Below, one piece after another: positions 1,497-57,994 of a stretch of DNA of 64,000 bases. The stretch is from Desulfobacterales bacterium (GTDB lineage Bacteria; Desulfobacterota; Desulfobacteria; Desulfobacterales; UBA5852). Location of the stretch: NCBI GenBank assembly GCA_963674755.2, contig CAXXVS010000003.1:1920001-1984000 (forward strand), given 5' to 3'. The notes under the pieces are model-generated. The model had not been told where the DNA came from. It saw only the letters and a list, made by a program, of their open reading frames with translations, and made no database searches. Every line of letters begins with the position of its first letter. Positions within the stretch are counted from its first letter, which is position 1. Both the position numbers and the translations under genes were made by a program.

Positions 1497-2043
1497 GTTG
1501 GGCTTATCAGACGGCGCTTTTTGGCCCCTGCCGGCGTTCTCGCCCTTTTGGCGCCGCAGGCGTAGCCCACGCTACGTCGAGGACGGCAAAAGGGTCTGCG
1601 GCCTTGGCAGGGAACCAAAATTCACCGCCTGATAAGCCCAACAGGTACTGCAGGCGGCGCCTTTTGGCCCCCTGCCGGCGTTCTCGCCCTTTTGCCGTCC
1701 TCGACGTAGCGTGAGCTACGCCTGCGGCGCCAAAAGGGTCTGCGGCCTTGGCAGGGAACCAAAAGGCGCCGTCTGATAAGCCCAACAGGGACTGCAGGCG
1801 ACACCTTTGGCCCCCTGCCGGCGTTTTCGCCCTTTTGCCGTCCTCGACGTAGCGTGAGCTACGCCTGGGGCGCCAAAAGGGTCTGCGGCCTTGGCAGGGA
1901 ACCAAAATTCACCGCCTGATAAGCCCAACAGGGACTGCAGGCGACACCTTTGGCCCCCTGCCGGCTTCTCGTCCTATTGCCGTCCTCGACGTAGCGTGAG
2001 CTACGCCTGGGGCGCCAAAAGGGTCTGCGGCCTTGGCAGGAAC
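1497..2043 (+). repeat. Tandem array of 4 nested-hairpin units (1497-1642, 1643-1786, 1787-1929, 1930-2043 truncated)
   Basis: Near-identical 143-146 bp units; unit 1 is closed by the 14-bp IR gttgggcttatcag/ctgataagcccaac; same motifs as the dispersed copies. Confidence 0.95.
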
Positions 2044-2168
2044 AAGTTGAGCTACCCCGGGCGCATCACGTATTGGCCTGATGGGCGCGCTTCTTTTTCC
2101 TGTTGATCTAAATCAGTGTTTTTGGCACATGTAAGGTTGCGAAAAAGCCTGTCGATGAGAGGGGGGCG

Positions 2169-2576
2169 TTGACCGTGCAGAAAAAATATCTAGTAGCATA
2201 CAACGGGTCGGAGGCTTCCAGGGTGGCTTTGGAATTGGCCAAGCATCAGGCCGTGCTGCGGGGATCCCATGTGGACATCGTGACATCCATGGAGGGCGGC
2301 CCCAAGGAAAAGCCCGAGGCCATCAGTGAGGCCAATTTTCTTCTGGAAGAGGCCGGCAAAGACCTCAAGGCGGCCGGTGTCGTCTGCGCGGTGCACCAAC
2401 TTGTGCGGGGCTTGTCGCCGGGCGAGGATGTCGTTAAATTCGCCGAAGACAATGAGACCGATTTTATCTTCGTGGGCATCGAGAAGAAGTCCCGCGCCCA
2501 GAAAATCCTCCTGGGCTCCACAGCCCAGTACATCATCCTCAAGGCGGGCTGCCCGGTGGTGACGGTCAAGCCCTGA
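2169..2576 (+). CDS. Universal stress protein (UspA family)
   Basis: N-terminal YLVAYNGSEAS; C-terminal FIFVG...LLGSTAQYIILKAGCPVVTVK. Confidence 0.9.
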   Translation: MTVQKKYLVAYNGSEASRVALELAKHQAVLRGSHVDIVTSMEGGPKEKPEAISEANFLLEEAGKDLKAAGVVCAVHQLVRGLSPGEDVVKFAEDNETDFIFVGIEKKSRAQKILLGSTAQYIILKAGCPVVTVKP

Positions 2577-2689
2577 GCTTGGCCCCGGACAGCGCATCCC
2601 ACCCTCCGCGGCTTTCCCACCGATTCTCTTTGGGGCCGGATCCCGTCGGATCACGATCCGGCCGCCTACGGTTTGTCTGCCGGCCGGCC

Positions 2690-3610
2690 TCACAGGGGCA
2701 GACGGCGCAGGAAAGGCCGGACGCCCAGCTGATCTTCGAGCTGACGGCGAACCGCAAGGGCCTTGTTCTCGTCGTTATAGGGGCCGACCGTGACCTTGTG
2801 CCAGGCGGTTTGTTGGCGCATTTCCGTATGAATGGCGGCCGGGAATCCTTGTGCGGAAAGGATATCCCGCTGCTCCAGGGCCAACTGGCGGTCCAAATAG
2901 GCACCGACCTGCAGTTCGTAATGCCAGGTAGCGGCCGGGGGGGCAGACCCGTCGGGGCCGGGAATACGATCGGCCAGAAAGCGGGTAAGCTCATCCACCG
3001 CCCGGACGATCTGGCTGTCGCGCAGATTCCATCCCGTGCGGGCGCTGCTCAGGGGGATGCCCAGGGGGGTCAGGGGCAGGCTGCCGTCCTGCAGGAGGGC
3101 CACATAACGGTCCGACCAGAGACGCCGACCGTCCTGGGTGCTGTAAATCATGATCGTGGCCCCGACGCTTACGTGGGAGTAGATTCCCATATACAAGCGT
3201 TCATATTCGGTCACCGTGCCGGATACGACGGCATCGCAGCCCAGCCGGCCCCCCAGCCGGCGGAGACTCTGCGGGGTCAGTGCGCCGGCCGCTAAATCTT
3301 TTTCGTCTTCCAATACACGATCCACCTGAAACAACTCCACATCCTGGAACGGACGATGGCTGAGGTGGCCGTACAGGCCTTCCCGGACCATCCGGCCCAG
3401 TTCCGGCATGTCGGTCTGGTTGGCGAAAGGGAGGATCGCGATGGACCGCGGGGCCGCACCGTCGTGGAGGGTGCTCATCTCCTGGTAGACGACCTGCGGT
3501 CGGGAGAGGCAGCCGGTGATCGTCATCACGAGGACCAGCAGGATCATTGTCATCGGCGGCGTCCGCGGATGCTGTCGGGCCCGTTGGCTCTGGGATTCTT
3601 GATGTGTCAT
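2690..3610 (-). CDS. Putative lipoprotein (GNA1162/DUF799-like) with C-terminal SPOR domain
   Basis: Hydrophobic signal plus ITGC lipobox; IAILPF-N motif; C-terminal YELQVGAY...WHKVTVGPY SPOR motif; true start may be downstream. Confidence 0.7.
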   Translation of the reverse strand: MTHQESQSQRARQHPRTPPMTMILLVLVMTITGCLSRPQVVYQEMSTLHDGAAPRSIAILPFANQTDMPELGRMVREGLYGHLSHRPFQDVELFQVDRVLEDEKDLAAGALTPQSLRRLGGRLGCDAVVSGTVTEYERLYMGIYSHVSVGATIMIYSTQDGRRLWSDRYVALLQDGSLPLTPLGIPLSSARTGWNLRDSQIVRAVDELTRFLADRIPGPDGSAPPAATWHYELQVGAYLDRQLALEQRDILSAQGFPAAIHTEMRQQTAWHKVTVGPYNDENKALAVRRQLEDQLGVRPFLRRLPL

Positions 3611-3762
3611 GGCGGCCTTGAAAAAATAATCGCGGGTGCCTTTGGCGCTGCTCTACAGGAAAATCCTCCGCGCTTCGCTGCGTCTGGCGGTGACCAAAAG
3701 AAGCACAAGTCATTTAACGCGCCGTTGGCGCGAATGTCAAAACCAACCCGGGGGCCTGCTGA

Positions 3763-3791
3763 TTGACTCGGCAAGGAGGATAACGTATAGT
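3763..3791 (+). promoter_or_regulatory. Sigma70-type promoter for the ACT-domain gene
   Basis: TTGACT-N17-TATAGT. Confidence 0.6.
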
Positions 3792-3888
3792 GACTCACTC
3801 TGGAAAGCGACATTATTGCGAGGCCTTTGTAAGATAAGGATGTCTGGCAGAGGCCGTTCCCCTTGCCCCCCAAGGAGGATAGATCGTC

Positions 3889-4383
3889 ATGATCAGGACC
3901 GAAATCTCTCTTTTTTTGCAGAATGCGCCGGGTGCGCTGGCCAAGCTTTCGACGCTTTTTTCCGAAACCGGCATCAACATCGACGCCATCACGATCCAGG
4001 ATGCGTCCAGCTACGTGCAGGAACTCTTCCGGGCCCGGGGCAAATCCCTCAAGCGCATCGCTTCGGCCGCCAGCTACAACTCCATGCGCAAGGATTCCGC
4101 CGAATATGCCCTGATCCGCCTTCTGCCGGCCGACGGCAAAACAAATGCCGCCATCGACCTGCTTTCCAAGAACGACTATCTCTTCGACATGCTGCCGGTC
4201 ATCGCGTTGGAGCTGGAAAATCGTCCGGGGGCTATGGCGGAGGTGACCGCCAAGTTCGGCGAAGCCGGCATCAACATCAACTATGTATACGGATCGGTGT
4301 CCTCTCCGGAGGAAAAATGCCTGTTCGTTTTTTGTCCGGAAGATATCGATCTGGCATCGAAAATTTTTAGCGATCACCCCTAA
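3889..4383 (+). CDS. Tandem ACT-domain protein
   Basis: Two ACT motifs (LQNAPGALAKL...GINI; LENRPGAMAEV...GINI); AGGAGG SD. Confidence 0.85.
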   Translation: MIRTEISLFLQNAPGALAKLSTLFSETGINIDAITIQDASSYVQELFRARGKSLKRIASAASYNSMRKDSAEYALIRLLPADGKTNAAIDLLSKNDYLFDMLPVIALELENRPGAMAEVTAKFGEAGININYVYGSVSSPEEKCLFVFCPEDIDLASKIFSDHP

Positions 4384-4628
4384 AACAGCCCAGGGCTCAT
4401 GGCAAGGCGCGCGACCCCGGAGTCCTGCCATGAGTCTGCGTTACCACAGACGGCGCTGATAAGCCGTCGCCCATCCCTGCGTCACTTTCCCGGGCAAACC
4501 GGTCCCCCCCGCTCCTCTTGCTGAAATGCCATGCCCGCTGCCCGGGCACGACCACCCAATTATTTCCTCCAAACCCATAAACTTTTGCGGCGGCGTGCCG
4601 ATAATGAGGGCAGGAGGACGTTAGACTC

Positions 4629-5756
4629 ATGTACCAACAAAGCGATTGTGCTGAAAAAATTAGAGAAATCAAACACGAGGCCCAGGAAAGGGGCGTCGAA
4701 GCGTCGTCTCCCAGCGACCAGGTGCGCAAGCAGATCCTGATCGTTGACGACGAACGCCCGATCCGGATGCTCTTGCAAAAGATCCTGGAGACCAATGGCT
4801 ACGACTGCCGGGCCGCCGAAAACGCGGCCGAGGCACGCGTCCTGATGTCCGCCCAGGCCAGTGATCTGATCCTGTGCGACATCAACATGCCCGGGGAATC
4901 CGGTCTGGACTTCATCCGCCATGTGCTCAAGGCGTTCCCCGACACGGCGGCCATCATGGTGTCGGCCATCGGCGATCCCCTGTTGGCGGAGTCCATGCTC
5001 CAGTTAGGCGTTTATGACTACATCATCAAACCCATGGACCGCAACGGCATCCTGATCAGTGTGGCCAATGCCTTCCGCCGGCGCGACCTGGAAATTGCCA
5101 ACCGTTCCTACCGGCGCAATCTCGAAGAAATGGTGGATGAGCGCACCGACTCCCTCCAGCGCAGTATGAAAAAACTGGAAAACGCCATGAACGGCATCGT
5201 GCGGGCCATTGCCCACACGGTTGAGACGCGTGATCCGTACACCGCCGGCCATCAGCGCCGGGTGGCCGATCTGGCCGTGGCGCTGGCCCAGGCCGTGGGG
5301 TTTGAGGCGGAAATGATCGAAGCCGTGCGCATGGCCGCCATTATCCACGATTTGGGCAAGATCAGCGTCCCGGCCGAGATCCTGAGCAAGCCCAGCCGAT
5401 TGACGGTCAACGAGTTCAACCTGATCAAGGAACACCCCCAGGTGGGCTACAATATTCTCAAGGATATCGAATTCCCCTGGGAAATTGCCACCATGGTCTA
5501 CCAGCACCACGAGAAGCTGGATGGCAGCGGCTATCCCTTAGGCCTTTCCGGGGACGAGATCCTGCCTGAGTCGCGCGTGCTGACCGTGGCCGATGTGGTC
5601 GAGGCCATGGCCTCCCACCGCCCCTACCGGCCGGGGTTGGGCATTGACATCGCCCTGGAGGAAATCCAGAAGAACCAGGGCCGGCTCTATGATCCGAAAG
5701 TGGCCGCCGCCTGCCAGAGCCTTTTCAAGGAGGAGCGCTTTTCTTTCGAGAAGTAA
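4629..5756 (+). CDS. Response regulator with HD-GYP c-di-GMP phosphodiesterase domain (RpfG-like)
   Basis: Receiver ILIVDDE/CDINMPG; HDLGK; HHEKLDGSGYP. Confidence 0.9.
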   Translation: MYQQSDCAEKIREIKHEAQERGVEASSPSDQVRKQILIVDDERPIRMLLQKILETNGYDCRAAENAAEARVLMSAQASDLILCDINMPGESGLDFIRHVLKAFPDTAAIMVSAIGDPLLAESMLQLGVYDYIIKPMDRNGILISVANAFRRRDLEIANRSYRRNLEEMVDERTDSLQRSMKKLENAMNGIVRAIAHTVETRDPYTAGHQRRVADLAVALAQAVGFEAEMIEAVRMAAIIHDLGKISVPAEILSKPSRLTVNEFNLIKEHPQVGYNILKDIEFPWEIATMVYQHHEKLDGSGYPLGLSGDEILPESRVLTVADVVEAMASHRPYRPGLGIDIALEEIQKNQGRLYDPKVAAACQSLFKEERFSFEK

Positions 5757-5914
5757 AGCGGTTGGTTTCAAACGTGCCCTTGCGGCGTCGTGCCGCCTGA
5801 CGCATTCCTTCAGCAGATGCCATCCCCTCAAGAACCCATCAGATGGGAAATCCTGTTCTGCGGGATATCCCGGCTTCGTCTCGATTTCGAGCGCCCCCCA
5901 TTTTGAGATGGGTC

Positions 5915-7084
5915 CTAGGCCATGTGGGTCTTGGGCGTGCGCTTGTCTTTGAGCAGATGGTTGCTGATGACCACGCGCTGAATTTCCGAGGTGCCCTCAT
6001 AGATGGTAAAAACCCGGGCATCCCGATAATAGCGTTCCACCGGATAATCCTTGGTGAAGCCGTAGCCGCCGTGGATCTGAATGGCCTTGGCCGTGAGGCG
6101 ATTGACCATTTCCGAGGCAAAGAGTTTGGCCATGGAGGCCTGGCGGGTATATTTGGCTTTCTGGTCCTTCATGGCCGCGGCGGACATGGCCAATTGGCGG
6201 GCAGCTTCCAATTCGGTGGCCATGTCGGCCAGCATCCAGCGCAGCCCTTGAAACTTGGCGATTTTCTGCCCGAATTGGACCCGTTCCTGGGCGTATTTGA
6301 TGGAGGCGTCCAAGGCGGCCTGGGCCACGCCGATGGATTGGGCGGCGATGCCGATACGTCCGCCATCCAGGGCCGTCATGGCCAGTTTGAAGCCCTCGCC
6401 CTCCTGCCCCAGAAGGTTTTCGGCCGGCACCCGGCAATCGTCGAAGATCAGGTCAGTGGTGTCCGAGGCCCGCAGCCCCATCTTGTCTTCCTCGTGACCC
6501 ACCTTGAAGCCGGGGGTGCCCTTCTCCACGATGAAGGCGCTGATGCCCCGGTGACGCTGGGCTTCGTCGGTCTTGGCGGTGACGATCACCAGACCGGAGT
6601 TCTTGCCGGTGGTGGTAAAGCGCTTGGTGCCGTTGATCACATAGGCGTCCCCGTCCCGGACGGCGGAGGTGATCTGGCTGACCGGGTCGGAGCCGGCTTC
6701 CGGTTCCGTCAGGGCGAAGGCGCCGATTATTTTGCCCGCCGTCAGTTGGGGCAGGTATTTGGCTTTCTGCCCCTCCGAGCCATAGCGCAGGATGCTTTCG
6801 CAGACGATGGAATTGTGGACGGACATGACCACGGCGGTGGCGGCGCAGGCGTAGGCGATTTCCGACAAGGCCAGGACGTAGCTGATGGTGTCGGCTCCCT
6901 CGCCGCCGTATTCGGGGGGCACCATCATGCCCATGAGCCCCAGTTCGGCCATCTTTTTGAGGTTGCCGGCCGGGAATTCCTTGGTACGGTCGCGTTCCGC
7001 TGCGGTCGGGGCGATGACTTTGCGGGCAAATTCCCGCACCATGGCCTGGATCATCAACTGCTCGTCGGTAAACCGGAAAAGCAT
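5915..7084 (-). CDS. Short-chain (butyryl-CoA type) acyl-CoA dehydrogenase
   Basis: ALTEPEAGSD, QIHGGYG, IYEGTSEIQR; start placed at MLFRFT after a GAGG SD. Confidence 0.9.
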   Translation of the reverse strand: MLFRFTDEQLMIQAMVREFARKVIAPTAAERDRTKEFPAGNLKKMAELGLMGMMVPPEYGGEGADTISYVLALSEIAYACAATAVVMSVHNSIVCESILRYGSEGQKAKYLPQLTAGKIIGAFALTEPEAGSDPVSQITSAVRDGDAYVINGTKRFTTTGKNSGLVIVTAKTDEAQRHRGISAFIVEKGTPGFKVGHEEDKMGLRASDTTDLIFDDCRVPAENLLGQEGEGFKLAMTALDGGRIGIAAQSIGVAQAALDASIKYAQERVQFGQKIAKFQGLRWMLADMATELEAARQLAMSAAAMKDQKAKYTRQASMAKLFASEMVNRLTAKAIQIHGGYGFTKDYPVERYYRDARVFTIYEGTSEIQRVVISNHLLKDKRTPKTHMA

Positions 7085-7726: not shown

Positions 7727-8590
7727 TCATTTCGATCCCCGATCGTAGCGGTAGAACCCCTGTCCGCTCTTGTGGCCCAGCCAGCCGGCTTCCACGTATT
7801 TGCGCAGCAGGGGACAGGGCCGGTATTTGGAATCGCTGAAGCCGTTGTAAAGGGTCTCCATGATGGCCAGGCAGGTATCCAGACCGATCAGGTCCGCCAG
7901 GGCCAGGGGCCCCATGGGGTGGTTCATGCCCAGCTTCATGACCGTATCGATAGCCTCGGCCTCCCCCACCCCGTGGTAGAGGCAGAAAACAGCCTCGTTG
8001 ATCATGGGCATGAGGATGCGGTTGGCGATGAAGCCGGGGAAATCGTTGGCTTCGGCCGGGATTTTGCCGAAGCGCTCGGAAAGGGACCAGGTGAGCGCAA
8101 AGGTCTCCTCCGAGGTGGCCAGCCCCCGGATGACTTCCACCAGTTTCATGACCGGCACGGGGTTCATGAAATGCATGCCGATCACCTTGTCCGGCCGGCC
8201 GGTCTGGGCGGCGATGCGGCCGATGGGAATCGAGGAGGTGTTGGTGGCCAGAATCGTGTCCGGCGGGCAGATGCGGTCCAGATCACGGAAGATGCCGAAT
8301 TTCAGGTCTTCCCGTTCGGTGGCTGCTTCCACCACAACATCCGCTTCGGCCATATCCTTGAGATCGGTGCTGGGCTTGATGCGCCCCAGGATGGCGCTTT
8401 TTTCATCGGCGCCCAGGCGCCCCTTGGCAACACCGCGCTCCAGGTTGGCGGCGATAACGCCCAGGCCCCTGTCGACGAATTCCGGCTTGATGTCGTTCAT
8501 GATCACTTGCAGCCCGCTGGCGGCCGCCACCTGGGCGATGCCGTTGCCCATCTGGCCCGCGCCCACCACACCGAAGACTTTGACTTCCAT
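7727..8590 (-). CDS. hbd: 3-hydroxybutyryl-CoA dehydrogenase
   Basis: GAGQMG, NTSSI, GMHFMNP, PMGPLALADLIGLD. Confidence 0.93.
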   Translation of the reverse strand: MEVKVFGVVGAGQMGNGIAQVAAASGLQVIMNDIKPEFVDRGLGVIAANLERGVAKGRLGADEKSAILGRIKPSTDLKDMAEADVVVEAATEREDLKFGIFRDLDRICPPDTILATNTSSIPIGRIAAQTGRPDKVIGMHFMNPVPVMKLVEVIRGLATSEETFALTWSLSERFGKIPAEANDFPGFIANRILMPMINEAVFCLYHGVGEAEAIDTVMKLGMNHPMGPLALADLIGLDTCLAIMETLYNGFSDSKYRPCPLLRKYVEAGWLGHKSGQGFYRYDRGSK

Positions 8591-8611
8591 GCTTTCCTCC
8601 TAGTGAAAAAC

Positions 8612-8700
8612 GGTTCAAGGATTCTGGGATTCAAGGGCCGAGGGTATAAAGGCGGTTCACGTTCACTTGAACCCTTGACCCCTCGGATCCTTGGTCCCTT
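8612..8700. repeat. Octamer-periodic imperfect inverted repeat
   Basis: Left arm ggttcaag gattctgg gattcaag ggccgagg; right arm cttgaacc cttgaccc ctcggatc cttggtcc. Confidence 0.65.
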
Positions 8701-8704
8701 GTCG

Positions 8705-9883
8705 TTATGGTCTCGTTACCACCAGCGCCACGGCTTCGCCGCCGCCCAGGCAGAGGGAGGCCAGGCCGGTCTTGCTGCCCCGGCGCTCCATTTCGTACAA
8801 CAGGGTCACCAGCACCCGGCCGCCGCTGGCCCCGATGGGATGTCCCAGGGACACGGCCCCGCCGTTGACGTTTACCTTGGCCGGATCCATGTCCAGTTCC
8901 CGCAGCACCGCCAGGGTGGAACCGCTGAAGGCTTCGTTGATCTCGAAGAGGTCTACGTCTGCGATGCCGATCCCCTGTTTGGCCAGGCATTTGGGAACGG
9001 CCCAGATGGGCGCCACCAGCACGTATTTCATGTCAATCCCGTAGGATGCCTGGGCCCCGACGCGGGCCAGGATCCGGCAGCCGGCCGCCTCGGCCTTTTC
9101 CCGGGCCATGACCACCAGGGCGGCGGCGCCGTCGCTGATGATGGAAGCGTTGCCGGCCGTGGCCGTGCCGGTTTTCTGGAAGGCCGGCCGCATGGCGGCC
9201 AGGGCGTCATAAGAGGTTTCACGGACGCATTCGTCCTGATCAAAGACCTTTGCCGGGCCCTTGCGCTGGGGGATCTCCACCGGCAGGATCTCATCCTTGA
9301 ACCGGCCCGCGGCGATGGCGTCCAGGGCACGGCGGTAGGACTCGGCTGCGTAGCGGTCCTGGTCTTCCCGGGAGACCCCGTATTTTTCGGCGCACAGGTC
9401 GTTGGAGATGCCCATGTGGAAGTCGTTGACATGGTCCCACAAGCCGTCGTTGATCATGCTGTCCTTGAGAACGCCGCTGCCCATCCGGTAGCCGGTGCGG
9501 GCTTTATCCAGATAATGGGGGGCCATGCTCATGGTTTCCATGCCGCCCGCCACCACCACGTCGGCATCGCCCACCTGGATGGCCTGGGTTGCCAGCATGA
9601 CGGCTTTGAGGCCCGAACCGCAAACCTTGTTGACCGTGATGCATTCCACCGCGTCGGGCAGGCCGGCCTTGACCGCGGCCTGTTTGGCCGGGTTCTGGCC
9701 GTAGCCCAGGGGCAGCACCTGGCCCATGATGGCCTCGTCCACGTCCTCTTTGGCGATGCCGGCCCGTTTTACGGCTTCGGCGATTACGAGGCCGCCCAAC
9801 GTCGTGGCCCCCGTGGTGCTCAGGGTGCCGCCGAAGCTTCCCAGCGGCGTTCGCACCGCGCTGACAATGACAACCTCTCTCAT
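8705..9883 (-). CDS. Acetyl-CoA C-acetyltransferase (thiolase)
   Basis: NKVCGSG, NEAF, GHPIGASG, CLGGG; ATG at 9883 after GGAGGAG SD. Confidence 0.95.
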   Translation of the reverse strand: MREVVIVSAVRTPLGSFGGTLSTTGATTLGGLVIAEAVKRAGIAKEDVDEAIMGQVLPLGYGQNPAKQAAVKAGLPDAVECITVNKVCGSGLKAVMLATQAIQVGDADVVVAGGMETMSMAPHYLDKARTGYRMGSGVLKDSMINDGLWDHVNDFHMGISNDLCAEKYGVSREDQDRYAAESYRRALDAIAAGRFKDEILPVEIPQRKGPAKVFDQDECVRETSYDALAAMRPAFQKTGTATAGNASIISDGAAALVVMAREKAEAAGCRILARVGAQASYGIDMKYVLVAPIWAVPKCLAKQGIGIADVDLFEINEAFSGSTLAVLRELDMDPAKVNVNGGAVSLGHPIGASGGRVLVTLLYEMERRGSKTGLASLCLGGGEAVALVVTRP

Positions 9884-9896
9884 ATCTCCTCCTTGT

Positions 9897-10020
9897 GGGC
9901 GGATGCGTAAAACGCCCGATAGCGGCGTTACGCGAATTTCTCGTCGCTGCGGCGTACTTGAGTACGCCTCTCTCCTCAAAATCCGCAAGCCTTGTTCTCG
10001 AACGTTTTACGCATCCGCCC
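9897..10020 (+). repeat. Diverged nested-hairpin element with perfect 18-bp terminal IR
   Basis: gggcggatgcgtaaaacg ... cgttttacgcatccgccc enclosing ggcgtt..., ggcgtac-ttga-gtacgcc and ...gccttg. Confidence 0.85.
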
Positions 10021-10254
10021 GAGTTGAATTGAACATTCACATTTCGATATTTAGGCGACTTTATAGATCGCAGCTTGGTGATTTGCGATGTATTTTTCAG
10101 TCTAAGCGAGTCTTGTTCTCGATGGCCTTTCTATATCCTGCGATTCAAGAAGCATGTCATAGGAAGTCATCCCGTTGTTGCCGCGGCCTGCAAAAATTCA
10201 CTACACTCCTCGGGCACCGCAAGCCGTGGAGTCTTAAATGCTCCCTCTCGATAA

Positions 10255-10377
10255 AGGCTGCTGTCAGGCGGTAGATTTTCGATCCCGGCAAGGCCGCAGC
10301 CGATTGGCCCCCGCAGGCGCAGCGGCGCTGCGTCGAGGACGGACAAGGGGCGAAAAGATGCTGTCTGACGGCGGCCT
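10255..10377 (-). repeat. Nested-hairpin family copy (internally deleted), directly after the icmF stop
   Basis: Reverse complement reads gcatctttt...tcctcgacgcagc-gcc-gctgcgcctgcgg...ctgcggcctt...aaaatctacc inside the IR aggccgccgtcag/ctgacagcagcct. Confidence 0.85.
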
Positions 10378-10378
10378 T

Positions 10379-13300
10379 TTACATGTTGCGGCGGTATTTT
10401 CCGCCAACCTCATACAGCGCCCCGGTGATCTGGCCCAGGGAGCAGGTCTTCACAGCCTCCATGAGCTCGGCGAAGATGTTCCCGCCGGACAGGGCGGCCT
10501 GCTGCAGGCGTTCCAGGGCCTGGGGCGCCTCGTCCTGGTGGCGGGCGTGAAAGTCGGCCAGACGCTTGAGCTGGGAGGATTTCTCTTCTTCCGTGGCCCG
10601 GGCCAGCTCGACGCCCTCCGAGAGTTCGTCCTCGTGGGCATCCGGGTCGCGAAAAGTGTTGACCCCGATGATGGGCAGATCGCCGGTATGCTTCAGGGTT
10701 TCATAATAAATGGATTCCTCCTGGATCTGGCCCCGCTGGTAGCCGGTTTCCATGGCGCCCAGGACGCCGCCGCGTTCGGTGATGCGGTCGAATTCCAGCA
10801 GGACGGCCTCCTCCACCAGGTCGGTCAATTCGTCCACGATGAAGCTGCCCTGCAGCGGATTTTCGTTCTTGGCCAGGCCCCACTCCCGGTTGATGATCAT
10901 CTGGATGGCCAGGGCCCGGCGCACCGATTCCTTGGACGGGGTGGTGATGGCCTCGTCGAAGGCGTTGGTGTGCAGGCTGTTGCAATTGTCGTAGATGGCG
11001 CACAGGGCCTGCAGGGTGGTGCGGATGTCGTTGAACTGGATGTCCTGGCTGTGCAGGGAGCGGCCCGAGGTCTGGATGTGGTACTTGAGCATCTGGGAGC
11101 GGGCCGAGGCGCCGTATTTATCCCGCAGGGCCACGGACCAGATGCGCCGTGCCACGCGGCCGATGACGGTGTACTCGGGATCCATGCCGTTGGAGAAGAA
11201 GAAGGAGAGATTCGGTCCGAAATGGTCCAGCGGCATGCCCCGGGAGAGATAGTATTCCAGATAGGTGAACCCGTTGGCCAGGGTGAAGGCCAGCTGGGAG
11301 ATGGGGTTCGCGCCGGCCTCGGCGATATGGTAGCCCGAGATGGAGACGGAGTAGAAATTGCGGACGTTGTTTTCGATGAAAAAGGCCTGGATGTCGCCCA
11401 TCATCTTGAGGGCGAAATCGATGGAGAAGATGCAGGTGTTCTGCCCCTGGTCCTCCTTGAGGATGTCGGCCTGGACCGTGCCGCGCACGTTGGCCAGGAC
11501 GTCGACCCGGATCTGATGATAGACGTCTTGGGATGGTGCTTTGCCGTTTTCGGCCCGGTAGCGTTCCACCTGCTGATCGATGGCCGTATTGAGAAACATG
11601 GCCAGGACGATGGGGGCCGGCCCGTTGATGGTCATGGAGACCGATGTGCTCGGCGCGCAGAGCTCGAAGCCGCCGTAGAGCACCTTGACGTCGTCCAAAG
11701 TGCAGACGCTCACCCCGGAAGTCCCCACCTTGCCGTAGATATCGGGCCGCGGGTCCGGGTCGTAGCCGTAGAGGGTGACGGAATCGAAGGCCGTGGAAAG
11801 GCGTTTGGCGGCGCTTTCGGCCGAGAGCAGCTTGAAGCGGCGGTTGGTGCGGGCCGGGTCGCCCTCGCCGGCGAACATGCGGGTGGGGTCTTCGCCCACC
11901 CGTTTGATGGGGAAGACGCCGGCCGTGTAGGGAAAGTAGCCGGGCAGGTTTTCGCGCCGCAGCCAGCGGTAGATCTCGCCGGGGTCCTTGAAATGGGGCA
12001 GGGCGATTTTGGGAATCTTTTTGCGACACAGGGATTCGGAAAAGAGCGGGACGCGGATCTCCCGGTCGCGGACCTGATAGACCAGCTCGTCCTGTTGATA
12101 CGCCTTTTGGGTCTTTTTCCAGCCCTCCACCAGGGCGGTGGTTTCCGGATCCAGGGCCTGACGGGCCTTAGCGGTGGCCTGGTTCAATGGCGCCAGCAAC
12201 TCCCCGGTGGTATCGCCCGGGGTTTCAGCGGATAGGGTGCGGGCGGTTTCCTCCAGGTGCCATACCCGGCGCAACAGATCGGCCTGATCGTCGGTGCGGC
12301 GATGGTAGTGGCGTACGGTGTCCGCGATTTCGGCCAGGTAGCGGGTGCGTTCGGGCGGAATGATGATGGTCTTGGAGGAGGAGACCCGGGTGGCCGGGCG
12401 GGACAGCTGGGAGGCGAAAGCCACTCCGGTCTTTTCACTGATGGTGTCCAGTAGGCCGTGGTAGAGGGCGGTCACCCCGTCGTCGTTGAACTTGGAGGCG
12501 ATGGTGCCGTAGACGGGCATTTCCTCCGGCGCCTTTTCAAAGGCCATCCGGTTGCGCTGCACCTGTTTACGCACGTCGCGCACGGCATCTTCGCCGCCGC
12601 GCTTTTCGAATTTGTTGACCACCACGATGTCGGCGAAATCGAGCATGTCGATTTTTTCGAGCTGGGAAGCCGCCCCGAATTCGGCGGTCATGACGTAGAC
12701 GGAAATGTCTACCATATCGACGATGAGGGAGTCGCCCTGGCCGATGCCGGCGGTTTCGGCAATGATCAGATCGAAACCGGCCGCCTTGGCCACCTGGACG
12801 ATGTCGCTCATGGCCTCGGGAATCTCGGTGTGGGAGCGCCGGGTGGCCAGCGAGCGCATATAGACCCGGGAATTGCCGATGGCATTCATGCGGATGCGGT
12901 CCCCCAGCAGGGCGCCGCCCGTCTTGCGGCGGGAAGGATCGGCGCTGATGATGGCCACGCGGAGGTCCTTGAGATCGAGGAGCATGCGCTGGATCAGCTC
13001 GTCGGTCAGCGACGACTTGCCCGAGCCGCCCGTACCGGTGATGCCGATCACCGGAATGGTGCGCTGGGGCGTGCGGGCCTGGAGTTCTTCCCGCAGTTGG
13101 GCCAGATGGCCGTTTTGCATGGCCTTGGCCTGCTCCACAGTGGTAATCAGATTGGCTACGAGCAGTTTGTTGTCAGGATCCAGCCGGCTCAGGTCGGGCG
13201 CCTGGCCGCTGGCCCGGGGAAAATCCATGGTTTTCACCATGTGGTTGATGATGCCTTGCAGCCCCAGGTGTGCGCCGTCTTCCGGGGAGTAGATCTTGGC

Positions 13301-19817: not shown

Positions 19818-20014
19818 GTGTCCACCCCTAAACGGCATCTTTTGGCCCCTGGCGGCGTTCTCGCCTCCTGTCGGTCCTCGGCGTAGCCGGGCTACGCCTG
19901 TGGGCGCCCGTCGGCTGCGATTTGTTGAACACCGATGTGTTTAAGACTCAGACGTGAAATCCCGCGCTGTGCGGCGGGACCAGGAACCAAAATCTACCAT
20001 TTAGGGATGGACAC
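19818..20014 (+). repeat. Nested-hairpin family copy, long subtype
   Basis: Outer IR gtgtcca..ccctaaa / tttaggg.tggacac; ggcatcttttgg, ggcgttctcgc, tcctcggcgtagc...gctacgcc, aaccaaaatctacc; starts 3 nt after stop. Confidence 0.9.
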
Positions 20015-24357: not shown

Positions 24358-25533
24358 ATGACCGAATATGACTACTGGAAAATTTTCCCCCGCATGCCGC
24401 GCAAGGTGACCCTCGGCGACATTACGGTGCGGGACGGTTTTCAGCACCTGGAGAAATTCATTTCCACGCGGGCCAAGATCTTTTACGCCGAGGAGATGAT
24501 TTTTGCCGGCTGCCGCAACATCGAAGTCACCAATCTGGGCAACCCTTATCTCATGCCCCAGTTCAGCGATGCCGAAGATCTGCTGGGCTACCTGCGCGGG
24601 GACCGCTTCCGCAGCAAGTGCGCCAAGCGCGGCATCAATTATGACGACATCACCATCACGGCCGTCACCATCCGGGAGAAGTCGGTGGACCGGGCCATCC
24701 AGCTGCGGGAGCAGGGGATCGGTCCCGACCGCTGCCTGATGATGGTCTCCACCGAGGAGGAGCACCACTTCGCCAATTCGGGCACCTCGCTGCCCGACTA
24801 TTGGAAAGAGTGCGAACGCGCCATCCGCAAATGCCGGGATGCCGGTATGAAGATGTGCGGCACGGTGAGCACCATCTGGGGCAGTCCCATCGCCGGGGCC
24901 ACCGAGCTGAAGGATGCCGTGGAGTTCACCAAGCGCTTCCTTGAGATCGGCGCTTCGGACATCGAGCACGCCGACCACGACGGCAGTGCCTCGGCGCCGG
25001 AGGTCTACCGCTATTTTTCCATGATCCTGGATGAAATCCCGGACACCAGCGTCCACATCGCCCATTTTCACGAAACCAAGCGGGTGGCCTCGGCCTCGGT
25101 TCTGGCGGCCCTGCAGGCCGGGATTACTCATTTCGAGGCGGTTTTGGGAGGCATGGGCGGCCAGCCCGCCAATTTCCTGGACGATTGCCCGGTGCCGGGC
25201 ACCGGCGATTATTATTACGAGGACCCCCGCTACGTAGGACTTGTCTGCCTGGAGGATACCCTGGTACAAATCGACGAAATGGGTATCGCACACGGCTATG
25301 ACGTGGACCGCGTGCTCTGGCTGGGCCGCCAGATGGAGCGCACCGTGGGCCACCGGCTGCGCAGCGAAGCGGCCATCAACGGCCGGACCCTCAAGGGGGG
25401 GCATCCCAGGTTCGCCCGGCCCGGCCTAGCCAAGGTCAAGACCCGCCTCGGCGAAGCGCCGGATCAGAATCTGCCCGCGGACTGGGGGCCCAAGGCGGTG
25501 CTCCCCGAGCATTTGCGCCCCAAGGTTAAGTAG
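24358..25533 (+). CDS. HMG-CoA lyase-like DRE-TIM metallolyase
   Basis: DITVRDGFQ, HFH metal motif; cluster context. Confidence 0.78.
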   Translation: MTEYDYWKIFPRMPRKVTLGDITVRDGFQHLEKFISTRAKIFYAEEMIFAGCRNIEVTNLGNPYLMPQFSDAEDLLGYLRGDRFRSKCAKRGINYDDITITAVTIREKSVDRAIQLREQGIGPDRCLMMVSTEEEHHFANSGTSLPDYWKECERAIRKCRDAGMKMCGTVSTIWGSPIAGATELKDAVEFTKRFLEIGASDIEHADHDGSASAPEVYRYFSMILDEIPDTSVHIAHFHETKRVASASVLAALQAGITHFEAVLGGMGGQPANFLDDCPVPGTGDYYYEDPRYVGLVCLEDTLVQIDEMGIAHGYDVDRVLWLGRQMERTVGHRLRSEAAINGRTLKGGHPRFARPGLAKVKTRLGEAPDQNLPADWGPKAVLPEHLRPKVK

Positions 25534-25675
25534 TGCCCATCCGGAGGTGGCATCTTTTGGCTCCGGCCGGCGTTCTCGCTCTTTGGAAATCCTCGCCGTA
25601 GCCCAGCTACGCCTGCGGTTTCCAAATCACTGCGGCCTTGGCCGAAACCAAAATCTACCACCGCTGGATCGACAC
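25533..25675 (+). repeat. Nested-hairpin family copy
   Basis: ggcatcttttgg...ggcgttctcgc..tttggaaa-tcctcgccgtagc-cca-gctacgcctgcgg-tttccaaa..ctgcggcctt...accaaaatctacc; abuts the stop codon. Confidence 0.92.
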
Positions 25676-36538: not shown

Positions 36539-36595
36539 GTAATCGATCATCAGGGCGGCACCGGCGGAGGCCAGTGCCGCATATTATTGAAAGGG

Positions 36596-38359
36596 CTAGA
36601 AGAGTCCCGACACCTTGCCGGTTTCCGGATCGACATCCACCCGGCGGAAGGCCGGGTTGGAGCTCGTGCCGGGCATCAGGCTGATGGTGCCCGCGCAGGG
36701 GCAGAGGAACTTGGCGCCGGAGTAGATCAGCACGTCGCGGATCGGCAGACGCCATCCCTTGGGCACGCCCTTCTTGACCGGATCGTGGCTCAGGGAGAGG
36801 TGGGTCTTGACCATCATGGTGGCGAAATCGGCGTATTTGGGGTCGTTCTCCAGCATTTCGGCCTTGGCATTGGCCTCGGGAGCCCAGTCCACACCGTCGG
36901 CGCCGTAGACGTTCTTGGCGATGGTTTCGACGCGGTCGCGCAGCTTCATCTCCAGCGGATACAGGAAGTCGAAGTCGTTTTTCTCGTTGCAGGCGTCGAT
37001 GACGGCATCGGCGAATTCGAGGGCCCCGTCGCCGCCCTTTTCCCAGTGCTTGGACTCGGCGCAGCGGGCACCGGCCGCTTCGGCGGCCTTGCGCACGATG
37101 GCGCACTCGGCATCCGTGTCGGTGTAGAAGCGGTTGATGCAGACCACCGGGTTGATGCCGGCCTTGCGGATCACACCGATCATGTGGACCATGTTCTCGC
37201 AGCCCTTTTCGACCAGTTCGAGATTCTCTTTGGTATAGGCATCGTCAAGCGCCTTGCCGGCGACAACCTTAGGTCCGCCGCCGTGCATCTTGAGGGCCCG
37301 GATGGTGGTGGTCAGGACCGAGACATGGGGTTTGAGGCCGGAGAAGCGGCACTTGACATTCCAGAATTTCTCGAAGCCGATGTCGGCGGCGAAGCCGGAC
37401 TCGGTGACGTGGTAGTCGAACAGCTTGAGGCCCACGCGGTCGGCGATGATGGAGCTCTGGCCCACGGCGATGTTGGCAAACGGGCCGGCGTGCACCATGC
37501 AGGGGTTGTATTCCGCGGTGCACATCAGGGTGGGGTTGATGGTGTTGCGCATGAAAGCGGCCATAGCGTTGCCCACTTCGAGGTCGCCGGTGGTGACCGG
37601 CTTGCCGCTCTTGTCGAAGGCTACCGTAATGTTGTTGAGGCGCTCCTTGAGGTCGGCCAGGTCTTTGGCCACGGCCAGGATGGCCATACACTCGGAGCCT
37701 ACGGCGATACCGAATTTGGACTGCATGGTGAAACCGTCGTAGCGGCCGCCGAGGCCGATCACGATGTTGCGCAGGGCCTGGGCGCAGAAATCGATGATCC
37801 AGCCCATTTCCACGCGGGTGGGATCGATATCGAGGCGGCGCATCTTGGTGAGGCGTTCCAACTGCTCATCGTTGTAGTTGCGCTCATGCTGCATACGGGA
37901 GGTCATGGCCACCATGGCCAGGTTGTGGGCGTTCATGATGTCGTTGATGTCGCCCGTGAGGCCCAGGGAGAATTCGGTCATGGGGATCAGCAGGGAGTTG
38001 CCGCCGCCGGCCGCGGTGCCCTTGACGTTCATGGTGGGGCCGCCGGAGGGCTGGCGCAGGGCGCCACCCACGTTGACGCCGCGTTTGCCGAGACCTTCCA
38101 TGAGTCCGCAGGAGGTGGTGCTCTTGCCTTCTCCCAGGGGAGTCGGGGTAATGGCGGTCACTTCGATGTATTTTCCATCGGGTTTGTTCTTCAGGCGATC
38201 GATGATCTTGAGGAAGTCGAGCTTGGCCAGCCGCCCCATGGGCAGCATCTCATCGGCCTGCAAGCCGAGTTTCTCCCGCCATTCGTCGGGCGAGGGCATG
38301 TTCTTTTCTGCCGCTTCGGAAATCTGCCAGTCTGCCATATTAACCGCATCGTAAGCCAT
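36596..38359 (-). CDS. fhs: Formate--tetrahydrofolate ligase
   Basis: [45 protein letters not shown]. Confidence 0.97.
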
Positions 38360-38618
38360 TTATCCTATCCTCCTTTGCTAAGTTGTTGGATTAAACAGGC
38401 AACGAATCCATAAGGTGGTGCGTCATCTATTGTAAGAACCACGAAAATCAGGTGGGCGGTCTGATGGCTGCGGTCTTCAGGCGGAACTCAGCCCTGTTCG
38501 CAGCGTTCGAAATGAACTCCGCCCTTGTAGCAGCTCGGTCCTTTTTTGGCAAGGATAAATCATCGCACCGCGGGGTTGCCGGCGGCCGGATCGGCCGCTC
38601 TCGTTCTTGAGGGGGGCG

Positions 38619-46861: not shown

Positions 46862-47006
46862 CGTGCCAGTCCAGAGGCGGCATCTTTTGGCCCAGCCCGG
46901 CGTTCTCACGTTTTTGCAATCCTCGGCGTAGCACCACTACGCCTGTGGTTCCGAAAACGCTGCGGCCTTGGTCTGAACCAAAATCTACCCCCTCTGAACA
47001 GGCACG
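46862..47006 (+). repeat. Nested-hairpin family copy
   Basis: Outer IR cgtgcc..cagagg / cctctg..ggcacg; all conserved motifs present; starts 2 nt after stop. Confidence 0.92.
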
Positions 47007-49642: not shown

Positions 49643-49830
49643 CAGGCTGTGGCTAAACGGCGCCCCAGGCCGAAAGGCGGCGTTGTCCCGCGCTGCGGGA
49701 GTTCTCATCTGGTTCTATGGGCTAAGGCGAGTCCCGCCCTCGCGAAACCGCCGCTGCAACCCTGATGGTTGCTGCGCTTTTCGCAGCGCACGGCGCCTTG
49801 CCTTTCGACCTGTTGGTGATCCACAGCCTG
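49643..49830 (+). repeat. Diverged nested-hairpin family copy
   Basis: IR caggctgtgg/ccacagcctg; inner stem cagg.cgaaaggc / gcctttcg.cctg flanking ggcgtt ... gcctt. Confidence 0.65.
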
Positions 49831-54295: not shown

Positions 54296-54320
54296 TTTTA
54301 ATAAGAGGAGAAAAACGCCG

Positions 54321-55562
54321 ATGCAGGACGTCGTCATCGTAGAGGCCGTGCGCACCGCCGTAGGCCGGTATCTGGGTGCCCTGAAAGAGGTGGAAGCCTA
54401 CGACCTGGCCGCCCAGGTGCTCAATGCCGTGGTGACGCGCAGCGGGGTCGCACCGGAACAGGTGGATCAGGTCATGATGGGCCAGTCCTACCAGAACGGC
54501 GAATACGTCAACATGGCCCGCATGGGCTTGCTGACCGCCGGTTGGCCGGAAGCCGTGCCCGGCACCACCGTGGACAGCCGCTGCTGCACCGGTCTGGATG
54601 TGGTGCGCCTGGCCGCCGCCCAGATTGCCGCGGGCCAGGTGGATATCGTGGTGGCCGGCGGGGTGGAAAGCATGAGCAATGCCGAATTCTATTTGCCCGG
54701 TCGGGTGAAGTGGGGCGTCGGCGGCCCCGGCATGCCCCGCGGCCACGGGGATCCCTCCATCTGGGGGCTTTCCCTCTACGACCGTATTCAGCGGGCGCGG
54801 GTCATGTCTCAGCCGGAAGGACGCTACGGTGTTTTACCCTCCATGATGACCTGGGCCGAGACCGCCGCCAGAGAAGAGCAGATCAGCCGGGAGGCCTGCG
54901 ATGCCTGGGCCTTAGGGAGCCACCAGAAGGCCTGTGCCGCGTGGGAAGCGGGTGTCTTCGCGGATGAAATCGTTCCCATCAGTGTGCCCCGTCCCAAACA
55001 GGAGCCGCTGGTATTCGAGCGCGATGAAAATCCCCGGACCGACACGACCCTGGAAAAACTTGCCCGGCTGCGGCCTGTGTTGGGAGGGGTCTGCACGGCC
55101 GGCAACAGCAGTTCCGAAAACGACGGGGCCGCTGCAGTGTTGATGATGTCGGCGGCCCGGGCGGCCAGGCTGGGACTGACCCCCCTGGCCACGGTGCGAT
55201 CCTGCGTGCTGGCGGGCGACGATCCCCGGCGGGCTTATCAAACGGTGCCGGTGGCCGTGGCCAAGGCTCTGGACCGGGCCGGGCTCGCGCTTTCCGCCAT
55301 GGACTTGATCGAAATCCAGGAAGCCTTCGCCGCCCAGGTGCTGGCCGATTTGAAGCAGATGGGGGTGGGCCCCGATGATTATGAGCGGGTCAATGTGAAT
55401 GGATCGGGCATCTCCCTGGGGCATCCCATCGCCTGCACTGGCACCCGCGTGCTGGTGACCCTGCTGCACGAGATGAAACGCCGCCAGAGCCGTTTCGGGC
55501 TGGAGTGCATCTGCGGCGGCGGAGGGCTGGGCATCGCCGCCGTATTCGAGCGTGTGGCCTGA
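54321..55562 (+). CDS. Thiolase (acyl-CoA C-acyltransferase) with QEAF variant motif
   Basis: DSRCCTG, QEAFA, GHPIACTG, CGGGG. Confidence 0.9.
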   Translation: MQDVVIVEAVRTAVGRYLGALKEVEAYDLAAQVLNAVVTRSGVAPEQVDQVMMGQSYQNGEYVNMARMGLLTAGWPEAVPGTTVDSRCCTGLDVVRLAAAQIAAGQVDIVVAGGVESMSNAEFYLPGRVKWGVGGPGMPRGHGDPSIWGLSLYDRIQRARVMSQPEGRYGVLPSMMTWAETAAREEQISREACDAWALGSHQKACAAWEAGVFADEIVPISVPRPKQEPLVFERDENPRTDTTLEKLARLRPVLGGVCTAGNSSSENDGAAAVLMMSAARAARLGLTPLATVRSCVLAGDDPRRAYQTVPVAVAKALDRAGLALSAMDLIEIQEAFAAQVLADLKQMGVGPDDYERVNVNGSGISLGHPIACTGTRVLVTLLHEMKRRQSRFGLECICGGGGLGIAAVFERVA

Positions 55563-55615
55563 CCCCCCTTAGGCCGCGTTTTCGTCAAACAGGGCATGAA
55601 TCGGGGAAAGTTAAC

Positions 55616-56425
55616 ATGGGTGAGGCCCAAATTATGACCACCGCCACTGATGCCGTACCGATTCGGATTACGGTCCGTGACATGATCATGGACATCGTCT
55701 TCAATCGACCGGCCAAGAAAAACGCTTTGAGCGATGAGATGTACCTGGCCTTGATCGCCGGCCTCAGGCAGGCCCAGGCGGACGATGAGATCCGTGTCGT
55801 TCTGCTGCGCGCCGAGGGAGACTGTTTCTGTGCCGGCAATGACTTGCATGCCTTCCGCAACCGAGAACCCGGTGAAGACCCCAGTCCGGGACGCCTGTTC
55901 CTCGAGACCCTGGCGGCCCTGGAAAAGCCGGTCGTGGCCGCGGTCAACGGACCGGCCGTGGGCATCGGCACGACGATGCTGTTGCACTGCGACCTCGTCT
56001 ACGCCGGGATGGGGGCTACCTTCAAGACGCCCTTCGTGAATCTGGGGCTCTGCCCCGAGGGCGCCTCCAGCTTCCTGCTGCCGCAGATCGTCGGTCACCC
56101 CCGGGCCGCGGAGATGCTGCTCCTGGGGGAACCCATCTCAGCCCATATGGCCTGGGAATTCGGTCTCATCAACAATGTCTTCCGGGACGACGATCTCGTG
56201 ACGGAAGTGTTCGCCCAGGCCCGCAAGCTGGCCCAGCAGCCGCCGGATTCCGTGCGGCTGACCAAGCGCCTGCTCAAGGCCGCGCGTATGAAAACCGTTA
56301 AGGAAACGATCGCCACGGAAAGTCGTCATTTTGCCGAGATGCTGGGTTCTCCGGAATTCGCCGACGCGTTTGGGGCGTTTTTCAACCGGGAGCCGTCAGT
56401 TTCACCTTCACAGTCGCGTTTGTAA
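55616..56425 (+). CDS. Enoyl-CoA hydratase/isomerase
   Basis: FCAGND, AVGIGTTM, GLCPEGASS; alternative start 55634. Confidence 0.88.
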   Translation: MGEAQIMTTATDAVPIRITVRDMIMDIVFNRPAKKNALSDEMYLALIAGLRQAQADDEIRVVLLRAEGDCFCAGNDLHAFRNREPGEDPSPGRLFLETLAALEKPVVAAVNGPAVGIGTTMLLHCDLVYAGMGATFKTPFVNLGLCPEGASSFLLPQIVGHPRAAEMLLLGEPISAHMAWEFGLINNVFRDDDLVTEVFAQARKLAQQPPDSVRLTKRLLKAARMKTVKETIATESRHFAEMLGSPEFADAFGAFFNREPSVSPSQSRL

Positions 56426-56441
56426 CAAGGAGAGACGCTCG

Positions 56442-57605
56442 ATGGATTTCAACCTGTCCAAGGAACATGCAATGCTGCGCAAAGCGGTGCGGGAGTTCGC
56501 CGCCAAGAAGATCGCGCCCTATGCCGACGAGTGGGACGCCAATCATTACCTGCCGGTGAAAGAGGTCCTTCGCCCCATGGGTGAACTGGGGTTTTTGGGG
56601 GCGGTGATCCCCGAAGCCTACGGCGGAGAAGACATGGGATGGCTGGCAGCCGTCATTGTTACCGAAGAAATCGCCCGGGCCTCCAGCTCCATGCGGGTTC
56701 AGCTCAACCTCAGCGGCATCGGCTGTGCCTATCCGATTTATAAATACGGCACCGAAGCCGCCAAGCAAAAATATGTGGCCAAGCTCTGCACGGGGGAATA
56801 CCTGGGTGGGTTTGCGATCACCGAGCCTAATGCCGGTTCGGATGTCTTCGGTATGGAAACCGTCGCCGAAGACCGCGGCGACCATTACGCCATCAGCGGC
56901 TCCAAGACCTGGATTTCCAACGCCCACCAGGCCGACGTGATCGTGCTCTACTGCTACACCGACCGCGGCGCACGCACCAAAGGTCTGTCGGCCTTCGCGA
57001 TGGAATTGAAAAATACCAACGGCGTCAAGACCACCGACCTTGACAAGATGGGTTCCCATTCGTCGCCCACCGGCGAGATCTTTTTTGACCAGGCGCGGGT
57101 GCCCAAGGAAAACCTGCTGGGCCAGCCGGGCGACGGGGCGGCCATCGTATTCGCTTCCCTGAACAATACCCGCATCTCCGCCGCGGCCGGGGCGTTGGGC
57201 TGTGCCCAGGCCTGCCTGGACATTGCCACCAGGTACTGCAACGAACGCCGCCAGTTCGGCAAGCCCATCGGACAGTTCCAGATGAACCAGGACCTGATTG
57301 CCCAGATGGCCACCGAAGTGGAAGCCGCCCGCCTGCTGGTCTACAAAGGCGCCTGGCAGAAAGATCAGGGCCAGGAAAACAACGGCCTGGAAGTGGCCCA
57401 GGCCAAGTACTTCGCCGGCGAGACGGCCGTCAAGTGCGCCAACTACGCCATGCGGATCCTGGGCGCCTACGGGTATTCAACGGAATATCCGGTGGCACGC
57501 TATTACCGGGATGTGCCCACCTACACCATGGTGGAAGGCTCGGCCAACATCTGCAAACTGATTATTGCCGGCGACCAGTTGGGCTTCCGAAAGGCCAACC
57601 GCTAA
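56442..57605 (+). CDS. acd: Glutaryl-CoA dehydrogenase, non-decarboxylating type (glutaconyl-CoA forming)
   Basis: Resembles, from memory, the Desulfococcus multivorans enzyme: MDFNLSKE, RVQLN, ILGAYGYSTEYPVAR, MVEGSANICK, DQLG.RKANR. Confidence 0.85.
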   Translation: MDFNLSKEHAMLRKAVREFAAKKIAPYADEWDANHYLPVKEVLRPMGELGFLGAVIPEAYGGEDMGWLAAVIVTEEIARASSSMRVQLNLSGIGCAYPIYKYGTEAAKQKYVAKLCTGEYLGGFAITEPNAGSDVFGMETVAEDRGDHYAISGSKTWISNAHQADVIVLYCYTDRGARTKGLSAFAMELKNTNGVKTTDLDKMGSHSSPTGEIFFDQARVPKENLLGQPGDGAAIVFASLNNTRISAAAGALGCAQACLDIATRYCNERRQFGKPIGQFQMNQDLIAQMATEVEAARLLVYKGAWQKDQGQENNGLEVAQAKYFAGETAVKCANYAMRILGAYGYSTEYPVARYYRDVPTYTMVEGSANICKLIIAGDQLGFRKANR

Positions 57606-57608
57606 CCT

Positions 57609-57994
57609 GTGTCCGTGCGGAGGCGGCATCTTTTGGCCCCGGCCGGCGTTCTCGCGATCGGGAAATCCTCGCCGTAGCTCAGCTACGCCTCCGGTTTCCC
57701 AATTACTGCGGCCTTGGACGGAACCAAAACCTACCACCTCCGGAAGGGCACTCATATTGTAGCCATCGGGAGATCACATCTTTCGGCCTCTGGCCCGCCG
57801 CCGGTGGACCAAATCCACCTTTGGCGGACGAGCTGGCGTACTCGCCTCCTGTCGGTCCTCGGCGCAGCCGGGCTGCGCCTCGGGGCACCCGTCGTCGTCG
57901 GTTTGGTGAACACCGATGTGCCCCAAGATCAGGCCTGAAATCCTGCGCTGTGCGCGGGACCAGGAGCCGAAATCGACCGTTTGCGGACGGACAC
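57609..57994 (+). repeat. Two adjacent nested-hairpin copies (57609-57751 standard; ~57775-57994 long subtype)
   Basis: First starts 3 nt after stop and has all motifs; second resembles 19818-20014; pair closed by gtgtccgt/acggacac. Confidence 0.9.

Follow-up and report, generated by a model that had tools for sequence, protein, structure and literature searches.

Hairpin elements in the window

The 64,000-nucleotide stretch of DNA analysed here (the window) belongs to the genome of a Desulfobacterales bacterium (G000; assembly GCA_963674755.2, contig CAXXVS010000003.1) and contains a dispersed family of about 12 related hairpin elements. All of the copies listed in a first-pass annotation of the window are present at about the same places. 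The neighbouring genes are metabolic and include icmF and genes encoding acyl-CoA dehydrogenases, a thiolase, and CoA ligases. The genome of a sister species is called G004, and other G numbers denote relatives or other genomes used for comparison. Several copies have ends like those of insertion sequences (IS), and the elements are as follows.

1497-1642, plus strand: array copy 1, a complete hairpin with GGGCTTATCAG-type arms; its centre is inverted relative to copies 2-4
1643-1786, plus strand: array copy 2, core and right arm, a 144-nt unit
1787-1929, plus strand: array copy 3
1930-2043, plus strand: array copy 4, which has lost the right arm
9897-10020, plus strand: second-family copy with arms related to the ends of IS1182-like IS, 14 nt upstream of the start of the minus-strand thiolase gene
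10253-10378, minus strand: diverged copy of the main core, directly 3' of the icmF stop codon
19818-20014, plus strand: ISNCY-ended copy, core type b with optional insert C (about 19920-19979), 3 nt past the stop codon of an acyl-CoA dehydrogenase gene
25533-25675, plus strand: ISNCY-ended copy, core type a, which gives the G of the TAG stop codon of an HMG-CoA-lyase-like gene
46863-47005, plus strand: ISNCY-ended copy, 3 nt past the stop codon of a transporter gene
49643-49830, plus strand: distant relative with CAGGCTG ends, CTAA/CTGA flanks (an IS5-like footprint), and insert B reversed; two bulge motifs in common with the other copies
57609-57751, plus strand: ISNCY-ended copy, core type a, 3 nt past the stop codon of a glutaryl-CoA dehydrogenase gene, between that codon and an older copy
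57760-57994, plus strand: the older copy, with a decayed left end and core type b with inserts A and C

With a covariance model to which some of these copies contributed, 11 of them obtain E-values of 2e-19 to 9e-5. The element at 49643-49830 is absent from the matches of the model, and its relation to the other copies was judged by eye. The two-motif pattern of the core occurs nine times in the window, seven of these in the elements, compared with 0.18 times in shuffled sequences. The stems covary and the bulge motifs are retained, as had been described from the letters alone. Of 18 named pairs, 12 show changes on both sides, to which kinship of the aligned rows and DNA-level correction between the arms could contribute; 36 of the 44 rows came from a search pattern that fixed two motifs, and the subfamilies are not independent. 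In array copy 1, the 52 nt at the centre (1543-1594) form the reverse complement of the corresponding part of copies 2-4, an arrangement present in one of 86 copies tested. At each of the six core loci the stop codon of a co-oriented gene is no more than 3 nt away, in agreement with the first-pass annotation, and at 25533 the TAG ends on the first G of the element. Rfam gave no matches in the window at the gathering threshold, and the best E-value, on two stretches, was 1.2.

Terminal repeats and target-site duplications

The genome G000 contains about 298 copies: 214 loci of the main family, found in two rounds of nhmmer, and 84 from a second profile. Gene positions were taken from a simple in-house gene caller, which called 5261 genes. 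Elements of the main family are 117-290 nt long and lack a transposase gene, and one of the 214 lies inside a called gene. A terminal repeat of the GTGYCCRTCC type is present at both ends of 113 of the 214 loci, at one end of 54, and at neither end of 47, which contradicts the earlier statement that the terminal sequences are not conserved. The flanks carry TA at positions -6/-5, -2/-1, +1/+2, and +5/+6. An exact 6-bp repeat flanks 14 of the 113 copies with both ends (shuffled mean 0.8, maximum 5), and the two bases at the centre of TAnnTA agree in 46 of them (shuffled mean 8.6, maximum 18, in 1000 shuffles). The duplications of the window copies are decayed, which accounts for the earlier impression that there were none.

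The main family is very probably a MITE (gene-less miniature inverted-repeat transposable element) with ISNCY terminal repeats and a 6-bp TAnnTA duplication, likely moved in trans by an ISNCY transposase of the DDE type. The MITE anatomy is accompanied by an autonomous IS of relatives with the same ends and footprint, by empty and re-used sites, and by two orientation biases. A core-bearing element with a gene of its own was sought and rejected: in G326, G414, and G384 the near-identical copies measure 150-210 nt and contain no gene, and those in G414 and G326 represent recent bursts.

Partner insertion sequences

Candidate partner IS were sought through the DUF772 transposases of 17 relatives. 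An IS in G004 carries the same repeat at its ends as the main-family elements, and its transposase scores 445.2 bits against a cut-off of 325 for NF033593 (ISNCY). Transposases of this type occur in 29 of 301 genomes of the order, with two in G004. The partner IS is about 1.67 kb long and has the terminal repeat GTGTCCATCC. Among 34 full-length copies (1660-1698 bp), 27 are flanked by an exact 6-bp duplication, which has the form TAnnTA in 23 of the 27. The right end of the IS matches the consensus end of the MITE, both ends of which resemble it. The IS therefore shares with the main family its terminal repeat and its 6-bp, mostly TAnnTA, duplication; unlike the IS, the MITE is gene-less, has two right-type ends, and has a core that the IS lacks. 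The partner IS presumably belongs to the ISDol1 subgroup. ISDol1 is an ISNCY subfamily according to the available excerpt of PMC8147514. At locus L224 (G143:C1:2206400-2212600), two back-to-back ISNCY copies have one common 6-bp duplicated target, which is a direct case of target re-use.

Other IS have ends or targets in common with the hairpin elements. An IS5-family element of G000 (L002, G000:C3:1412501-1417000), with three related copies, also duplicates TAnnTA, the same target as that of the MITE, and one copy of the core carries ends similar to those of this element. A further family with IS5-like ends and a reversed insert B has at least three copies (G000:C1:175511-175543, C1:971268-971282, and 49643-49830 in the window). 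The left end of the second family matches a 619-residue IS1182-like element; its transposase scores 134.8 bits, below the cut-off of 270 for NF033551, and therefore only the label "IS1182-like" is used. A test for duplications at a fixed offset was negative in 32 second-family copies; duplications appear only beyond a further right end (two copies by script and one by eye) and are also found in relatives. An IS4 fragment at G000:C1:1286472 was rejected as a partner: its end also has TAGTGTCC, but both ends could be located in only 4 of 30 loci, and there the repeat continues outward as CAnTA, which disagrees with TAnnTA flanks.

Filled, empty, and re-used sites

The proposed comparison of filled and empty orthologous sites was carried out against 2.0 Mb of the approximately 6-Mb genome of G004. 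Of 235 G000 elements queried, 34 had orthologous flanks in G004, with 20 sites filled and 14 empty; in the reverse direction 42 of 59 elements had orthologous flanks, with 19 sites filled and 23 empty. The length difference equals the element plus 5-7 nt in 10 of 34 cases, and G000:C3:1919115 is a near-perfect empty site. Contigs from other sequencing runs on two stretches gave no clean empty-site joint among the matches listed.

Filled sites do not always carry the same variant. Eleven of the 20 differ in core type by their signatures, four of the 11 involving an unclassified core, and three are inverted. At the site of the copy at 25533, G004 and G005 have no element and G008 has a different variant. 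At the site of 19818, G004 carries a different variant, and in the window the remnant of an old right end lies behind the element. The site of 46863 is occupied in G004 by a core element with another end type. The copies at 57609 and 57760 correspond to a single element in G004, the core and right junction of which match those of 57760. Re-insertion at a regenerated target followed by collapse explains such same-site variants; in-place conversion between copies is a possible alternative.

Placement at stop codons and orientation

In 75 of 214 loci the element has the stop codon of a co-oriented gene directly at its 5' end, and in 11 it has that of an opposed gene directly at its 3' end, compared with 0-7 expected from random intergenic placement. 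The placement at stop codons noted in the window thus extends to the genome; however, the sense bias is limited to copies near stop codons. Between co-oriented genes the ratio of sense to antisense copies is 64:13 within 40 nt of the stop codon and 29:34 farther away. Sites common with G004 are stop-adjacent in 11 of 18 cases, compared with 4 of 14 species-specific sites by gene calls; the pooled test gives p = 0.011, but counts shared sites twice. The element provides the last base of the stop codon in 24 copies. Replication direction was rejected as the source of the sense bias, because the bias is present on both strands (53:8 and 22:3).

A second bias concerns replication. About 71% of the copies are on the leading strand, whether near stop codons (53 of 75) or not (80 of 112), compared with 54% of genes. 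The transposase of L179 (G004:C12) has the sequence QLPLM at residues 7-11 of its N-terminus, which we take to resemble a beta-clamp-binding motif and which could bear on the leading-strand bias. For ISNCYa, such a bias and binding to the beta clamp are described in the available excerpt of PMC3971601, which does not imply that ISNCYa and the partner group are the same.

The proposed course of events starts from mobilisation in trans by an ISNCY transposase, which may have been provided in the past or by a relative. Since TAnnTA often contains or creates TAA or TAG, insertions would land on stop codons. Each insertion would regenerate two targets, so that the same spot could be hit repeatedly. 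Neighbouring copies would then expand or collapse by recombination, giving rise to arrays, mosaics, and swaps of variants at one site. The sense bias near stop codons probably developed after insertion, through loss of the orientation that places the tighter, more continuous duplex in the mRNA. The common core is likely an old MITE body whose ends changed several times, and which would have been kept because its hairpin favours copying.

One core under several types of ends

The core is found between ISNCY-, IS1182-like, and IS5-like ends in Desulfobacterota and Nitrospirota. The exact two-motif pattern occurs in at least 118 stretches, and the 80 matches listed are mostly from Nitrospirota and Desulfobacterales. 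The covariance model detects the core in 25 of 141 genomes of the phylum, G000 included, and the records with the end type of the main family are from Desulfobacterales or delta proteobacteria. Pattern matches in viral contigs were set aside: there are seven, and the five viewed share one coding-like context without the hairpin. The footprints around the core are 4 bp in 15 of 23 copies (shuffled 6.3, maximum 11), 5 bp in 17 of 28 (shuffled 0.8), and 6 bp in the main family. Many copies, those of the Nitrospira type among them, close the hairpin with an internal arm, and their true right end and duplication lie about 25-80 nt farther out. Optional inserts occupy fixed places and, by loose patterns, nearly always have the orientation of the element (B in 59 of 60, C in 31 of 31, and D in 17 of 17). 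Rare changes amount to 44 of 1046 (4.2%) in the bulge motifs and to 527 of 9866 (5.3%) in other parts, and the rate in the motifs is not significantly lower (p = 0.13). Therefore, the conservation of the core seems to belong to the copies that are amplified more than to each inserted copy.

Alternative explanations

Several observations weigh against the MITE reading of the main family. A partner-type ISNCY transposase was not found in G000, the genome of which is 97% complete. Only 32 of 113 copies keep five or six of the six duplicated bases, and 24 of the 34 length differences at empty sites are scattered outside 5-7 nt. The ratio of sense to antisense copies at stop codons is 8:4 with intact duplications and 32:3 with decayed ones, which agrees with loss after insertion, but this age trend is not significant (Fisher p = 0.06). 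Neither element profile matches any of 91 IS loci, which shows that the core is not an internal piece of the ISNCY IS. The MITE model alone leaves unexplained both this absence and the conservation of the core and closing arm across phyla. It is possible, although on balance unlikely, that the core is a functional folded single-strand module, either DNA or RNA, formed by the strand opposite to that of the upstream gene and recognised by a putative protein that promotes copying, in-place conversion, or switching of end types; this would be compatible with the MITE reading. Folding is more favourable for the opposite strand in 107 of 113 main-family copies (by a mean of 13.7 kcal/mol), in 57 of 72 second-family copies, and in 68 of 79 copies from other genomes, a count that excludes the Gemmatimonadaceae match L103, which is a chance match. 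With DNA energies the numbers are 102 of 113, 62 of 72, and 60 of 79. Tandem GA/GA pairs, G-U pairs, and A-rich bulges can be read in the loops of the opposite strand, and the pairs changed on both sides, the internal closing arm, and the exchanged or inverted cores at shared sites point in the same direction. However, the strand bias is inherited from a few master copies, and the fold counts are therefore not independent; the search pattern fixed two motifs in most aligned rows; and the bulge motifs do not change significantly less often than other parts. Only 136 of 5261 gene ends have TAnnTA, so that repeated insertion at few good targets can explain the same-site swaps, and no partner gene lies beside the core copies inspected. 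A broader form of this idea is more doubtful: that the strand-specific folded module is an interchangeable cross-phylum chassis for non-autonomous elements, bound by a putative factor, which takes and mirrors IS5-, IS1182-, and ISNCY-type ends, receives plug-in hairpins at set positions, and undergoes in-place replacement at stop-codon sites.

The first-pass annotation proposed a folded nucleic acid recognised by a factor acting in trans. The fold does matter and a trans-acting factor likely moves the element; however, the ends and footprint match a DDE-type ISNCY IS and not an HUH (RAYT) enzyme. A repetitive extragenic palindromic (REP) or REPIN-like element moved by a REP-associated tyrosine transposase (RAYT) is strongly disfavoured, despite the hairpin shape, the GTAG in the apical stem, and 13 Y1-domain matches in the genome. 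None of the 298 copies lies within 2.6 kb of any Y1 match or RAYT-type gene of G000, the genome searched, where the nearest copy is 2692 bp away, and the suggested search for such genes flanked by copies came out negative. Terminal repeats and 4-6-bp duplications are DDE signatures, and the apical GTAG is replaced in one subtype. The dispersed hairpins are MITEs, not REP/RAYT elements. The other function suggested at the outset, a 3'-untranslated-region (3'-UTR) module, fared partly better. Stop-adjacent copies may be kept since the hairpin of the sense strand helps the host as a stabiliser or processing site, in the manner of ERIC and Correia elements, which would be compatible with the MITE reading but is rather improbable. 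It agrees with the limitation of the sense bias to near-stop copies, the more frequent stop-adjacency of shared sites, and the folding of the sense strand, which is weaker but still present in the upstream mRNA (z from -2.7 to -4.7); orientation-dependent effects of ERIC on mRNA are described in the excerpts of PMC2229807 and PMC3049150. By contrast, the loss of a harmful orientation fits the same data, and the mRNA carries the weaker-folding strand. Variants at shared sites are interchangeable or absent, the bulge motifs show the decay given above, and a copy that provides the last base of a stop codon can be hard to lose for that alone.

Arrays and other features

Adjacent copies are co-oriented 47:3. 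The second family forms tandem arrays of three to five cores in G000, in which only the first copy has the full left arm:

second-family tandem arrays: G000:C3:729721-730418, C2:1908285-1908802, C1:873275-874035, C2:2492326-2492871, C2:1709608-1710203, and C3:202063-202369

A site-specific nick or rolling-circle origin of the arrays was rejected. The junctions fall at varying bases and the last copies are truncated or have arms of their own, and therefore recombination between neighbours suffices. Short elements at G000:C1:852183-852314 and C1:866587-866716 have the same IS1182-like ends and a different hairpin interior. Genes with a Y1 domain, encoding about 275-355 residues and bounded by short inverted repeats starting with GGG, are unlinked to the hairpin family:

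Y1-domain genes with GGG inverted repeats: G000:C1:626392, C3:764779, C3:1282460, C1:1285484, C2:1644746, and C1:916428

Three long plus-strand open reading frames in the window (7772-9910, 10238-12235, and 36587-38413) are antisense to real genes. The gene caller kept none of them, and that at 7772-9910 has no NCBIfam match.

Relation to known elements

In the available excerpts of PMC2229807 and PMC3184786, the RUP, ERIC, Correia/NEMIS, Nezha, and Chunjie MITEs are likewise short and gene-less, with terminal repeats matching those of an IS and target duplications. They also share long hairpins, filled and empty sites, and 3' placement with orientation effects, and the partner IS of Nezha is likewise found only in another species. 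Those MITEs have one end type per family as far as the excerpts describe, whereas here a single core combines with several types of ends and footprints, and closure of the hairpin can be internal. General MITE properties and the orientation effects of ERIC and Correia are covered in excerpts of PMC2229807, PMC3184786, and PMC3049150. REP/REPIN-RAYT systems are likewise extragenic palindromes, often past stop codons and in doublets and arrays, whereas the hairpin family has no linked RAYT and has target duplications and DDE-type IS ends.

The excerpt of PMC2700814 reports 24 intergenic "short RNA elements" with a central palindrome in Geobacter, one copy of which is within an operon, and notes others in further Geobacter and in Desulfotalea. 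They are likewise intergenic and multicopy, and their central palindrome has the same apical pattern; the excerpt calls them RNA elements and names no ends, footprint, or transposase. These elements are likely members of the hairpin family, compared here by description and not by alignment. The motifs Desulfotalea-1, Solibacter-1, and Nitrosococcus-1 of Weinberg 2010 were dismissed, as the first rows in the part available do not resemble the core. The excerpt of PMC11602168 has nothing specific on these taxa and IS families, and its large MITE catalogue may contain these sequences. Neither the shared-core family nor its ISNCY partner is described in the literature searched, mostly papers free of subscription and outside ISfinder.

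The hairpin elements are a MITE family rather than a new class, and the shared core is its one unexplained feature. The interiors of MITEs are usually taken as filler between transposon ends. That one folded interior is retained in two phyla, with at least four types of ends, points either to a role in mobility or to switching of transposases with the body retained, and the two can now be tested, as the matching transposase, the target, and empty sites have been identified. The family also probably gives rise to false "conserved RNA motif" calls. With approximately 300 copies, more than one third of them beside stop codons, it may shape the ends of mRNAs in these genomes of the sulfate-reducer type.

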